Below, piece after piece: positions 27,554 to 28,937 of a stretch of 32,000 nt of DNA (its first letter is position 1; every line of letters starts with the position of its first letter). The position numbers were made by a program, and so were the translations under genes. The DNA comes from an uncultured Chloroflexia bacterium (GTDB lineage: Bacteria; Chloroflexota; Ktedonobacteria; Ktedonobacterales; JADMIN01): the NCBI GenBank assembly GCA_963718915.1, contig CAVRAI010000013.1, positions 420,001-452,000 on the forward strand, in the 5' to 3' direction. The notes beneath the pieces were generated by a model. It did no database searches, was not told the DNA's origin, and worked only from the letters and a program-made list of their open reading frames with translations.

Positions 27554-27571
27554 GCGGACGTGGTGCGGCGT

Positions 27572-27594
27572 GCCGCAGGCTGAAGCCCTGCGGC
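27572..27594 (+). terminator. Hairpin downstream of the lipoprotein gene (weak terminator candidate)
   Basis: gccgcagg (27572-27579) pairs with cctgcggc (27587-27594), with a 7-nt loop. The U-tract is poor. Confidence 0.35.
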
Positions 27595-27725
27595 TAATCC
27601 TAGTCGTTCGGTGCCTTTACTGAGGTCAAATGGGGTCAGTCAGAACGATGTGAGCCGCCAGCCACATTGCCTGTCCACAGATTGTTCCCAGCAATATCCA
27701 GCGATATCCGCCGCCTATTTCCCTA

Positions 27726-27734
27726 TGCTACAAT
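27726..27734 (+). promoter_or_regulatory. Extended -10 promoter candidate (TGcTACAAT) for the TIR-TPR gene
   Basis: ctaTGCTACAATgtcc, about 50 nt upstream of the ATG at 27783. Confidence 0.45.
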
Positions 27735-27782
27735 GTCCGCAAGGTTGCTCACAGGCTAGCTTGCCGTATGGAGGGGTGTCCA

Positions 27783-28703
27783 ATGGCGCAGATGCGTGTT
27801 TTCCTCAGCCATAGCTCTACCGATAGAGACTTTGCCGATGCACTCGCTAAGGCGTTACGTGATGCAGGCGCGGATGTCTGGTACGATGAGTCCCATCTGG
27901 GTACCGGGCAACTGCTTCGCGAGATTAGCAGGCAGCTGGCACAGCGTCCCGTCTTTGTCGTTGTTTTATCCAAAGCCGCCTTCGCTTCAGAATGGGTTCC
28001 TCGCGAGTGCGAGTGGGCTTACAACTTATATGCGGCCGAGTCAAACCGCATCATCTTGCCAATCGTCGCGGAGCCTATCGAGACGAGCGACTGGTATGAG
28101 ATGCTTTGGCTCGAAAGCTTCAGGCGCGTCTCAGGTCCAGGAAATAAGCCATACCATCGAGACGAAGCCATCAGACATGCTCTACATCTACTGGCACTGA
28201 CTCCAATTGGCGCAGTACCTGCACCTACCGACCCGCAACCTGCTGAGAATGTGTATGATCTTATTGAGCGCGGGAGAGCACTCGCCACACAAGAGCGCTT
28301 TGAAGAGGCAATAACTATCTTCGAGCGCGTCACCGAATTGGCGCCAAGCAACTCCACTGGATGGTCTATGCTAGGGGACATGTACGTTGAAATACAGGAG
28401 GATAACAACGCACTGCGAGCCTATGAACAAGCAGCTAAACTTGATCCAGACAATGCTGATATATGGGATGGACAAGGCATTGCGCTCCTAGGGCTTGATC
28501 GGCTCAACGACGCACTAGAAGCATTCGAGCAGGCAATAATCATCGATTCTGAGGACGAGACTGCTTGGGACGGGAAGGGCAGGGTGCTTCAGTTGCTTGA
28601 CAAGGCTGACGAAGCAAGAGTTGCTTTTGATATGGCTAAGAAACTTGCTAAAAAACGCAATATTGACTGGGACGGAAAGATTTACTTCAATCCAGAACTC
28701 TGA
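27783..28703 (+). CDS. TIR-domain protein with C-terminal TPR repeats
   Basis: TIR_2-like N-terminus: VFLSHSSTDRDFADALAKALRDAGADVWYDESHLGTGQLLREISRQLAQRPVFVVVLSKAAFASEWVPRECEWAY, with a Glu in the SxW..E position. There are at least 4 TPR units (FEEAITIFERVTELAPSNSTGW; NALRAYEQAAKLDPDNADIW; DALEAFEQAIIIDSEDETAW; EARVAFDMAKKL). The ATG at 27783 follows GAGGGG at 6-nt spacing. Confidence 0.85.
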   Translation: MAQMRVFLSHSSTDRDFADALAKALRDAGADVWYDESHLGTGQLLREISRQLAQRPVFVVVLSKAAFASEWVPRECEWAYNLYAAESNRIILPIVAEPIETSDWYEMLWLESFRRVSGPGNKPYHRDEAIRHALHLLALTPIGAVPAPTDPQPAENVYDLIERGRALATQERFEEAITIFERVTELAPSNSTGWSMLGDMYVEIQEDNNALRAYEQAAKLDPDNADIWDGQGIALLGLDRLNDALEAFEQAIIIDSEDETAWDGKGRVLQLLDKADEARVAFDMAKKLAKKRNIDWDGKIYFNPEL

Positions 28704-28796
28704 GGATTAAGGTTAGCCGTGTAGACGCCTTCCATTGCAAACGGGCGGTACTCGTTCCTCAGCATAATTGTCGTCTCGCTTGCATATCCTGAGCCG

Positions 28797-28805
28797 TGCT
28801 ATAAT
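28797..28805 (+). promoter_or_regulatory. Extended -10 promoter candidate (TGcTATAAT) for the CIS-like operon
   Basis: ccgTGCTATAATggcc. TTGCAT lies 14 nt upstream. It is about 130 nt upstream of the ATG at 28938. Confidence 0.45.
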
Positions 28806-28937
28806 GGCCCTATCCACAAATCGCGTCACCTCCTGGCCATTCTGTGCGTCTTTGTATGGAGATTCCTCAAAGCAGCAAGGTAGAGCAGCCGTCCGCGTGT
28901 AATGGGTTTATCTGGGGTGTTTGAGGGGATGGGCGAG

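Follow-up and report, generated by a model that had tools for sequence, protein, structure and literature searches.

The TIR-TPR gene located directly upstream of a contractile injection system (CIS) locus in the window (the entire 32,000-nucleotide stretch of DNA analyzed here) is, as read from its own sequence and those of its relatives, best described as a passenger at the CIS edge in soil Chloroflexi that is old, varies strongly and has often been deleted. The unusual feature of the locus is the age of its alleles rather than any fresh insertion, and its overall pattern combines a conserved enzyme part with a mosaic sensor part and repeated loss. We suggest that the gene may encode an autonomous, single-polypeptide TIR and TPR sensor-effector resembling the TIR-II defence system, a reading to which we give an even chance, and, with the same reserve, that its place beside the CIS represents the ancestral state within a single clade of the Ktedonobacterales.

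The coding sequence (27783..28703, forward strand) specifies 306 amino acids plus a stop codon. Within the 311 amino acid open reading frame listed mechanically at 27768-28703 on the same strand, Met6 (27783, MAQMRVF...) is the start common to all homologues, and a Shine-Dalgarno sequence, GGAGGGG, lies 5′ of it at 27770-27776. The upstream flank consists of a gene with a lipoprotein-like N-terminus and no Pfam match (26927..27553, forward strand), which shares 88-92% identity with its counterparts in relatives, whether these carry the TIR-TPR gene or lack it, followed directly at its 3′ end by a conserved stem-loop (GCCGCAGG-CTGAAGC-CCTGCGGC; 27572..27594, forward strand) that forms the left edge of the conserved flank. 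Genes for HPPK, a DUF4388/PatA_N protein, a response regulator and CheW (Pfam) are found further upstream. Downstream, 198 bp separate the TIR-TPR stop codon from the mechanical open reading frame of the first CIS gene (Pvc16_N/DUF4255; 28902..29549, forward strand; Pfam Pvc16_N, E 1e-38), homologues of which begin at the ATG at 28938 rather than at 28902, and this gene is followed by that for a Pvc15-like CIS AAA+ ATPase with a winged-helix domain (AAA+WHD; 29503..31590, forward strand; Pfam), the real start of which is probably near 29581. The first-pass annotation, which placed the TIR-TPR gene between core genes and a CIS locus, is confirmed as a whole in what it observed. Its interpretation stands in part: the TIR domain, four TPRs and glutamate, the dip in G+C content, the absence of a partner and the recurrence beside CIS loci hold up, while the acquired islet, the lack of a recognisable known system, the promoter resemblance and the readings as a CIS cargo or regulator are unsupported or need revision.

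Alignment with the closest relatives (loci labelled L001, L060 and so forth; the organisms are uncultured and represented by metagenome-assembled genomes) places indel boundaries around a segment of ~1.1 kb (27641..28750) that is present in the window and missing in these relatives, and within which alleles diverge deeply, as on an island. At least five sister lineages (L049-L053, L052/L055, L062, L066 and L063-L065) have an intact CIS but lack the gene. The empty site of L063 retains relics of the promoter, 5′UTR and first codons of the gene, while relic FLSHSSADR codons are found at the same position in the empty site of L052/L055, and the presence/absence polymorphism therefore stems from repeated deletion of an ancestral gene. 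Deletion has often emptied the slot and left the CIS genes unharmed, and the gene relics at the same site in the closest gene-less relatives speak against the horizontal acquisition proposed in the first-pass annotation.

Where the gene has been kept, its alleles are far older than their surroundings. Between the window and L060, dS is 0.34-0.47 in the flanks but saturated in the TIR-TPR gene, and identity at third positions falls from 0.74-0.79 in the flanks to 0.39-0.43 in the gene. The TIR domain is under purifying selection (window versus L060: dN 0.19 with dS saturated; dN/dS ~0.05), and its identity is 69-77% to the closest alleles and 72-77% to its best relatives. The TPR part is extremely variable, sharing at most 42% identity with anything in a search of 5.8 billion proteins, and even between L001 and L057, with flanks of 95% DNA identity, it shares only 70% protein identity. 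Taken over its whole length, the TPR part (dN/dS ~0.2) gave no sign of positive selection, a point against the preferred reading, and its variability looks recombinational rather than point-mutational. The slot holds very old mosaic alleles, which recombination among the paralogues probably maintains or exchanges, and a possible replacement of the coding part by within-clade recombination is included in the preferred reading.

Profile matches and an AlphaFold2 model (pLDDT 89.7; pTM 0.82) agree on the architecture of the protein. Residues 1-136 (27783..28190, forward strand) adopt the α/β fold of a TIR domain and match both Pfam TIR_2 (PF13676; residues 11-103 of the 311 amino acid frame; E 3.9e-20; 73 bits versus a cut-off of 28) and Pfam TIR (PF01582; 26.5 bits versus a cut-off of 21.3), which places the domain in the TIR superfamily. 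A proline-rich inter-domain linker of ~20 amino acids, modelled with lower confidence (residues 137-156; 28191..28250, forward strand), leads to four TPR repeats comprising eight helices (residues 157-291; 28251..28655, forward strand), for which matches to TPR_2, TPR_1 and TPR_11 were obtained at E 1e-20 to 1e-15 (Pfam), and the protein ends in a floppy tail of 15 amino acids. A search of the full model against the PDB returned TPR proteins only, adding nothing on the TIR domain beyond the sequence search. The putative catalytic glutamate noted at first pass is E75 (E80 in the 311 amino acid frame; GAG codon at 28005..28007, forward strand), situated in a WxxxE motif (W71-V-P-R-E75), and in a proper alignment it is aligned with E94 of PdTIR (3H16), the ARELD glutamate of BtpA/TcpB and the YELN glutamate of AbTIR. 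E94 of 3H16 is named as the active site in PMC11297309. E75 is invariant in the 34-sequence family alignment, and all fourteen family-invariant residues, E75 included, are present in the window protein, which is predicted to cleave NAD+.

Under the preferred reading of an autonomous sensor-effector, the C-terminal TPR solenoid would bind a cue in the form of a protein or peptide, originating from a virus or from some other source of non-self or stress, and binding would lift inhibition of the N-terminal TIR domain or promote its self-association. The glutamate of the WxxxE motif would then cleave NAD+, resulting in depletion or in an ADP-ribose-derived product, and the cell would be arrested or killed. 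The NADase activity, the trigger and the cellular outcome in this scheme are predictions, whereas the architecture, the conserved catalytic motif, the purifying selection on the TIR domain and the extreme TPR variability are seen in the sequences.

The gene belongs to a many-copy family of the Ktedonobacterales, for which 42 loci were recovered in a GTDB scan, with at least 5 copies in the genome MFD05502.bin.2.92, at least 4 in MFD00031.bin.2.123 and 3 in CP126532, and all named relatives are members of the Ktedonobacterales or Chloroflexota. Among the scanned loci only L001/L007 have CIS genes within 10 kb; the ~40 others have none, and P0052, P0063, P0081 and P0005 lie in gene contexts unrelated to any CIS. 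One sub-lineage is, however, positioned directly upstream of the CIS, in the same orientation as its first gene, in four deep lineages (the window, L060/L061, L001 and L056), while three further CIS-adjacent copies are suggested as candidates only (P0008/P0147, P0027/P0162 and P0048/P0167). The recurrence of TIR-TPR genes beside CIS loci in other genomes, put forward for checking at first pass, is real in L060/L061, L001 and L056, but is offset by the ~40 loci elsewhere and by the five or more CIS lineages that lack the gene. Two upstream contexts occur, one with the HPPK and lipoprotein-like genes and the other with an HTH-AAA_16-TPR_MalT regulator, and the CIS-adjacent gene keeps its place, its orientation and a private 5′UTR block across this rearrangement of the upstream flank. 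Such persistence exceeds that of a random neighbour and counts against the preferred reading. A functional link between the TIR-TPR gene and the CIS is conceivable but unsupported.

The private block extends from an extended -10 box (TGCTACAAT; 27726..27734, forward strand), the gene's own promoter, to the Shine-Dalgarno sequence at 27770-27776, and is conserved in all CIS-adjacent copies. The CIS operon has its own extended -10 box (TGCTATAAT; 28797..28805, forward strand), which is kept, with the following ~95-nt leader, in every lineage, gene-less ones included. A scan for consensus elements yielded no -35/-10 pair and no intrinsic terminator, and the promoters are therefore defined by the conserved extended -10 boxes only; an Rfam scan of 27400-29100 gave no match. 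The resemblance between the two promoters that had been remarked on is correct in its count (12/16 positions identical), but it reflects a generic extended -10 box, TGCTAnAAT, which is also found upstream of paralogues without a neighbouring CIS; TGCTAYAAT occurs three times in the window versus 0.31 expected.

These features bear on the proposal, which we consider unlikely, that the TIR-TPR protein is a trigger, regulator or allorecognition factor for the CIS, coupling a cue such as phage, stress or non-kin hyphae to CIS-mediated death in these filamentous bacteria. Positional orthology and the 5′UTR block conserved only in the CIS-adjacent copies are in its favor, as are an allele age far above that of the flanks and frequent presence/absence polymorphism, and the class IId CIS of Streptomyces, related to ones from filamentous Cyanobacteria and Chloroflexi, take part in within-strain cell death that is under developmental control (PMC10020575). 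Balancing selection of the kind known from fungal het loci would then account for the deep allelic lineages. That the 5′ edge of this class-IId-like CIS locus is such a balanced, hypervariable recognition slot, with ancient TIR-TPR alleles of differing TPR specificity setting when or against whom CIS-linked death is triggered, appears very unlikely, but if true it would tie a TIR immune-type sensor to a CIS for kin/non-self discrimination in filamentous Ktedonobacteria. However, the promoter, leader and genes of the CIS are intact where the TIR-TPR gene has been deleted, so the gene is not required. Furthermore, the promoter similarity is that of a generic -10 box, L058 and L009, close relatives of the L001 allele (86-93% TIR identity), are found at non-CIS loci, and L067, a CIS that does not belong to the clade, lacks a neighbouring TIR gene.

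It is likewise improbable that the protein is a cargo or toxin, loaded in or on the neighbouring CIS and delivered to a target cell, where its TIR domain would destroy NAD+ in the manner proposed for EAT15. A precedent exists in EAT15 of Aquimarina atlantica, a TIR-domain eCIS-associated toxin whose E83A mutant is non-toxic (PMC11297309), and which shares with the window protein an N-terminal TIR domain, a glutamate at a similar offset (E83 versus E75) and a CIS-adjacent gene. In the window, L060/L061, L001 and L056 the gene is the next one upstream of the first CIS gene and shares its orientation, and it accompanies the CIS in two different upstream contexts; both points are also in keeping with a cargo, and the gene lies within ~10 genes of the operon, the distance at which eCIS-associated toxins are usually found (≤10 genes; PMC11297309). 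CIS loading signals, however, comprise at least 20 polar residues (PMC11297309), and strand βA of the TIR domain occupies residues 5-9 in the AlphaFold2 model, leaving no room for an N-terminal leader. The DUF4157 marker (PF13699) is absent from the protein and its two neighbours, the spacer of 198 bp is too short for an immunity gene, and the combination of a conserved toxin domain with a variable TPR part is the reverse of that in typical polymorphic toxins. The classifier that picked out EAT15 uses a score for an N-terminal signal, and the validated toxins EAT14-17 are encoded downstream of their operons (PMC11297309), while the window gene is upstream, leaderless, fused to a TPR sensor and dispensable for the locus. 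An association with CIS does not extend across the family, ~40 paralogous loci being far from any CIS, and the CIS has been retained without the gene in at least five lineages.

The composition of the gene is one argument for another alternative, in which this genome recently acquired a foreign cassette of low GC content by horizontal transfer, lodged between core genes and the CIS locus. The hand counts made at first pass (29, 22 and 43 G+C per 60 nt) are exact, and the dip is real when measured across the whole window: the gene has the lowest GC content (0.519 versus 0.609 for the window) and the lowest GC3 (0.516 versus 0.64-0.85 in the other credible genes), and in sliding windows of 921 nt it falls in the lowest 1% (z = -2.8), with the minimum of the window inside it. 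The TPR half is the lowest part (GC 0.48; GC3 0.47). Amino acid composition was rejected as the source, since the dip extends to GC3. In three of the four CIS-adjacent alleles GC3 is 0.52-0.54 versus ~0.8 in the flanks, which the preferred reading of an ancestral sensor-effector gene leaves unexplained and which counts against it. The lack of the segment in the closest relatives, with otherwise identical synteny, also suits an insertion, and the saturated dS relative to the syntenic L060 allele (flanks ~0.4) fits allelic replacement from a diverged donor. A recent arrival is nonetheless unlikely: relics of the 5′ end of the gene persist at empty sites, the same promoter/5′UTR block and position recur in four deep lineages, and the named relatives all fall within the Ktedonobacterales or Chloroflexota. 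A phage collection contained no relatives, and plasmids gave single-domain matches only, with no full-length relative. An origin from a mobile element was rejected, integrase, transposase and tRNA genes being absent from the flanks, where a repeat search found short pairs at chance level only and no convincing terminal repeats. Among these pairs is a 15-nt inverted one of 80% identity at 27591/28705, which we do not trust.

Decay of the gene into a functionless remnant, with relaxed selection behind its low GC3, an array of four TPRs versus 5-8 in most relatives, an atypical tail of 15 amino acids and repeated loss in sister lineages, is most unlikely given the intact reading frame, the conserved start, Shine-Dalgarno sequence and -10 box, the retention of 14/14 family-invariant residues, the dN/dS of ~0.05-0.1 in the TIR and ~0.2 in the TPR part and the confident structure model, and the gene was rejected as a pseudogene because its frame is intact, its invariant residues are kept and its dN/dS is low.

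What is new in the locus is a natural experiment, in which a TIR-TPR sub-lineage has been fixed at the CIS edge while its sensor half diversified beyond recognition, with alleles much older than the surrounding genome and several independent deletions. If the neighbourhood is functional, it would be the first to connect TIR signalling with the cell death that CIS bring about in filamentous bacteria; otherwise, the locus is still a clean case of the evolution of an immune-type sensor at a fixed chromosomal address.

Comparison with known systems was made by scanning the gene and its neighbours with PADLOC, as had been proposed, NCBIfam and Pfam. Only matches at the level of the TIR domain were obtained, to the defence proteins PDC-S66, SAVED_TIR, ThsB, TIR-NLR and retron-TIR, and, as stated at first pass, no ThsA, STING, cyclase or STAND partner is present among the neighbours, nor is a SAVED partner. 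Membership of Thoeris, CBASS, Pycsar, Avs and retron systems was rejected, the scans having given no partner genes beyond these domain-level matches. The likeness to Thoeris ThsB is one of domains (partial PADLOC matches down to E 7.6e-11; Pfam ThsB_TIR 20.7 bits versus a cut-off of 21.2), whereas TPR fusions are not characteristic of Thoeris and a ThsA-type effector (SIR2/SLOG, Macro and similar) is absent among the neighbours. The SAVED_TIR model is matched by its TIR part alone (residues 15-105 of 404), and with regard to CBASS and Pycsar no SAVED, STING or cyclic-nucleotide-binding sensor was found, nor a cyclase nearby. Like the window protein, TIR-STAND, Avs and TIR-NLR proteins begin with a TIR effector and carry a sensor of TPR type at the C-terminus, and PDB 9M0N is an 824 amino acid 'tetratricopeptide repeat protein' with an N-terminal TIR domain. 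These proteins, however, have a central NTPase oligomerization module, where the window protein has only its 20-residue linker, and no NACHT, NB-ARC or AAA_16 profile matched between its TIR and TPR parts.

The best PDB sequence matches to the TIR domain (E 1e-12 to 1e-7) are the bacterial TIR NADases PdTIR (3H16), BtpA/TcpB (4LZP, 4C7M) and AbTIR (7UWG, 8G83), which share with it the F-x-S-H strand, the G-A-x-V-W-Y-D segment and the WxxxE motif, but which have a coiled-coil or no sensor, never a TPR array, and several of which are secreted virulence factors. In SARM1, the animal ARM-SAM-TIR NADase, an α-solenoid sensor/inhibitor controls a TIR NADase with the same catalytic glutamate; SARM1 differs in domain order, in its SAM oligomerization domain and in the type of solenoid, and no homology is implied outside the TIR domain.

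The first-pass annotation had concluded that this was not a recognisable known system, a view that does not stand, as a single-protein TIR and TPR defence has been validated as TIR-II, which protects E. coli from phage and in which the TIR active site is essential (Nat Commun 2024, PMC11350192). PADLOC v2.0.0 predates TIR-II, described as the most widespread TIR system, ~30% of which also encode an ATPase (PMC11350192). The window family differs from TIR-II in its restriction to the Ktedonobacterales, in being heavily paralogous, in having one sub-lineage at the CIS edge and in lacking the optional ATPase. Compared by architecture, the two share a TIR domain and a TPR array in one polypeptide without an obligatory partner, and since single-protein TIR and TPR defence genes are already known, the protein itself is no new kind of system.

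The TIR-TPR gene lies within a mechanical open reading frame of 311 aa (27768-28703, + strand). All homologues start at a position equivalent to codon 6 of this frame (MAQMRVF...), and the real gene is therefore placed at 27783-28703, encoding 306 aa, with a GGAGGGG ribosome-binding site preceding the start at 27783. The translated product contains a TIR_2 domain at its N-terminus (Pfam; Bitscore: 73; cut-off: 28; e-value: 3.9e-20), while TPR_1, TPR_2 and TPR_11 matches are located in its C-terminal half (Pfam; e-values: 1e-20 to 1e-15). The confident AlphaFold2 model (pLDDT: 89.7; pTM: 0.82), for which a 34-sequence alignment served as input, comprises a TIR fold (aa 1-136), a proline-rich linker (aa 137-156), four TPRs made up of eight helices (aa 157-291) and a floppy C-terminal tail of 15 residues. 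The domain description in the first-pass annotation, a TIR domain with TPRs, is correct by Pfam and by this model, as is its claim that the catalytic glutamate is retained. In a sequence search against the PDB, the TIR part matches the bacterial TIR proteins PdTIR (3H16; e-value: 1e-12), BtpA/TcpB and AbTIR, and residue E75 (codon 28005-28007; motif W-V-P-R-E) is aligned with E94 of 3H16 and with the glutamates of the BtpA ARELD and AbTIR YELN motifs. E94 is the active site of 3H16 (PMC11297309), and E75 is invariant across the family alignment.

Three hand counts made at first pass (29, 22 and 43 G+C) proved exact on recount. The GC content of the gene is 0.519 versus 0.609 for the whole window, and its GC3 is 0.516 versus 0.64-0.85 in the other credible genes of the window. 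It falls in the bottom 1% of gene-sized sliding windows (z = -2.8) and harbors the GC minimum of the window, with the TPR half being most extreme (GC: 0.48; GC3: 0.47). Amino-acid content was ruled out as the cause of the dip because GC3 is low. Low GC3 is shared by three of the four alleles adjacent to a contractile injection system (CIS), those of the window and of the related loci L060 (0.523) and L056 (0.536), the flanks of which are at ~0.8, while the fourth, in L001 (0.735), and the paralogues elsewhere (0.77-0.81) are host-like. The shared low GC3 would fit an old class of alleles, foreign or relaxed-codon in origin.

The gene is followed by a Pvc16_N/DUF4255 gene (e-value: 1e-38) and a gene for a winged-helix-containing AAA+ ATPase. 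In L001 and L060 the locus runs on with a second Pvc16_N gene and with sheath and tube genes, and in L001 these are followed by another tube gene and an eCIS_core gene. The locus is a CIS with class IId gene order, a class found in Streptomyces, filamentous Cyanobacteria and Chloroflexi (PMC10020575). Domain, composition and neighbour analyses thus confirm the initial observation of a low-GC TIR-TPR gene beside a CIS. The 5′ side harbors housekeeping genes (a lipoprotein-like gene, HPPK, MurT, ArgRS and UvrC) and a chemotaxis-like signalling cluster (20346-26243, - strand). This cluster encodes a hybrid kinase of CheA type, which carries CheW and receiver domains, together with CheW, a response regulator of a single domain and a DUF4388/PatA_N protein, and its synteny with the CIS flank extends to the L049-L055, L060, L062 and L066 lineages. 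Large, divergent HTH or GerE regulators with AAA_16 and MalT-type TPRs adjoin several CIS loci (L001, 6673-9625; L057, 3856-6807; L063, 1554-4502; L067, 1-2569) and recall the LuxR-type sco4263 of the Streptomyces CIS; none was seen 5′ of the CIS locus in the window. The window also encodes a 1266-aa fusion (8148-11948, + strand) of an N-terminal IrrE-like Peptidase_M78, a UvrD helicase and a PD-(D/E)XK nuclease, an AddA/PcrA-like layout that is unusual and has a metalloprotease at its head. As noted at first pass, the TIR-TPR gene has no ThsA, STING, cyclase or STAND gene next to it; a SAVED gene is likewise absent there. The PADLOC-type scan proposed there, together with NCBIfam, yielded matches at the level of the TIR domain and nothing beyond it.

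The promoters of the TIR-TPR gene and the CIS operon had been likened to each other. The 12/16 match is real, but the TGCTAnAAT extended -10 box is also found 5′ of non-CIS paralogues (L002, L003, L004 and L012), and the match shows what appears to be a normal housekeeping-type promoter rather than co-regulation with the CIS. The window holds three copies of TGCTAYAAT versus 0.31 expected; the third exact TGCTATAAT box (8036-8044, - strand) lies within a small ORF (7756-8151), facing the ArgRS gene ~500 nt away. Read-through into the CIS operon may occur, since no intrinsic terminator is predicted in the 198-bp spacer. The ~95-nt leader from the CIS -10 box to the Pvc16_N start (28806-28937) is better conserved across lineages than the flanking genes are at their third codon positions and may be a regulatory leader; an Rfam search of this region gave no match. 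In L049, L051 and L053, a tandem threefold expansion of GTCGTGGGTTT stands directly before the start codon (L049, about 9900-10000).

A search with the TIR-TPR protein returned 162 relatives, for which all source-given names stating a taxon are Ktedonobacterales or Chloroflexota. The scan of GTDB species representatives identified 42 TIR-TPR loci, in MAGs labelled nearly throughout as Ktedonobacterales, Ktedonobacteria or Chloroflexia, with at least five, at least four and three copies in single MAGs. When CIS proteins were compared by tblastn with these loci and their 10-kb flanks, CIS genes were found beside L001/L007 only, and the contexts of the relatives P0052, P0063, P0081 and P0005 are unrelated to any CIS; TIR-TPR genes, taken as a family, are therefore not CIS genes. 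Other TIR_2 fusions, a TIR-FGE-sulfatase and a 466-aa TIR protein, occur within 10 kb of paralogues (L002, 39-1055; L004, 20317-21002), and the surroundings of the L002 and L004 copies also include toxin-antitoxin-like genes (PIN, DUF433 and DUF5615) and an AAA_15/AAA_23 ATPase. Some paralogues may thus reside in defence-island-like neighbourhoods. The third codon of the non-CIS paralogue in L009 (10001-10012; MAG MFD05502.bin.2.92) is TAG, followed by TTG, which points to a nonsense mutation or a pseudogene unless it is a long-read assembly error.

Recurrence beside CIS loci, which had been raised at first pass and does not hold for the family at large, is observed in four deep lineages (the window, L060/L061, L001 and L056), where the gene lies directly 5′ of the first Pvc16_N gene and is co-directional with it. 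L060/L061 (MAG GCA_036406495.1) share the synteny of the window on both sides, while a divergent HTH-AAA_16-TPR_MalT regulator occupies the upstream side instead in L001 (MAG MFD00031.bin.2.123). Since a private promoter and 5′UTR block (TGCTAnAATGTCCGCAAGG...GCCGTrTGGAGGGGtaTCCAATGG), not found at paralogues away from the CIS, is common to all four, these genes are positional orthologues. In L001, GC-rich REP/MITE-like hairpin repeats (CCCTCCCC...GGGGAGGG; 9770-9880 and 11380-11480) flank the gene and increase its distance from the CIS to 768 bp, versus 198 bp in the window. The L056 allele (1088-2212) carries a zinc-ribbon-like insert (CWNCG...CSHCG) and ~70 extra residues in the TIR-TPR linker, and in L057 an IS element (DDE_Tnp_1 and DUF4096; 7077-7873) separates the HTH-AAA_16-TPR_MalT regulator from the TIR-TPR gene.

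The TIR-TPR alleles are apparently far older than their flanks. Between the window and L060, the flanking genes show dS values of 0.34-0.47 and dN values of 0.03-0.10, while dS of the TIR-TPR gene is saturated (2.0 overall, 3.8 in the TIR; TIR dN: 0.19); identity at third codon positions drops from 0.74-0.79 in the flanks to 0.43 in the TIR and 0.39 in the TPR part. L001 and L057 share 95.4% identity across 4.7 kb of upstream DNA, with just 70% protein identity (dS ~1) between their TPR parts. Database-wide, the window TIR shares 72-77% identity with its best relatives, and the TPR part at most 42% with any sequence. As dN/dS is ~0.05-0.1 for the TIR and ~0.2 for the TPR, both halves are constrained, and since the excess divergence extends to synonymous sites, the pattern favours putative old allelic lineages, or a mosaic exchange involving paralogues, over a burst of point mutation. 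Exchange between CIS-adjacent alleles and paralogues is plausible, with the TIR of the L001 allele being 86-93% identical to the non-CIS copies L058 and L009. The persistent address and this het-locus-like population pattern are the two observations favouring a link, regulatory or through allorecognition, to the cell death mediated by the CIS, which we consider unlikely; a balanced recognition locus coupled to such death is very improbable. About the same small chance as for the regulatory or allorecognition link is given to the protein being a cargo of the CIS, for which the TIR-domain eCIS-associated toxin EAT15 provides a precedent, but the leader, DUF4157 and family-wide association tests were all negative.

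Scanning metagenomes with the Pvc16_N protein of the window, and further look-ups, identified loci with the order lipoprotein, 330-460 bp, Pvc16_N and without a TIR-TPR gene, the flanking proteins of which share 77-94% (mostly 85-93%) identity with those of the window. These loci are L049/50/51/53, L052/55, L062 and L066. The gene is also missing from L063-65, which have the L001-type regulator on the upstream side. The alignment places the indel limits at approximately 27641-28750. Relics persist at two kinds of empty site. L063 retains 92-94 nt (~73% identity to L060 and L001) with a decayed TIR-TPR -10 box, 5′UTR and first codons, correctly ordered with respect to the CIS promoter, while in L052 and L055 CTCTTAGCCATAGCTCGGCTGATAGA, representing codons for (F)LSHSSADR, is fused straight onto the CIS promoter region. 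Since both upstream contexts hold relics, the gene was present before the two diverged and has been lost on at least two independent occasions; its absence from the nearest relatives is deletion, not insertion in the window. The horizontal acquisition initially proposed is disfavoured by these relics, which show an ancestral gene, subsequently deleted. A recent insertion is accordingly improbable, and decay of the gene least probable of all, both being disfavoured by the relics and the selection signal. All lineages without the gene have kept the CIS promoter, its ~95-nt leader and the CIS genes intact, and the gene is therefore not needed by the CIS; a more distant CIS locus, L067 (Pvc16_N 50% identical), has no TIR neighbour.

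Bacterial TIR domains with the WxxxE glutamate cleave NAD+. The TIR of this protein retains the full WxxxE catalytic motif under purifying selection, the TPR solenoid varies enormously, and the gene has no partner and many paralogues per genome. We give about an even chance to an autonomous sensor-effector, in which a ligand would bind the TPRs, the ligand-bound TPRs would release or assemble the TIR domains, and NAD+ cleavage would then arrest the cell. The first-pass interpretation is partly supported: it stands as regards the domains, the glutamate, the GC dip and the lack of a partner, and is not upheld as regards horizontal acquisition and the weight of the promoter resemblance. Of interest are the fixed position of the gene at the edge of the CIS, the ancient, mosaic nature of its alleles and the fact that it was lost repeatedly. 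The protein itself belongs to a known TIR+TPR type and is TIR-II-like: TIR-II, likewise a single protein, protects E. coli from phage through a required TIR active site, and is reported to be more widespread than any other TIR system, whether or not an ATPase is added to it (PMC11350192).
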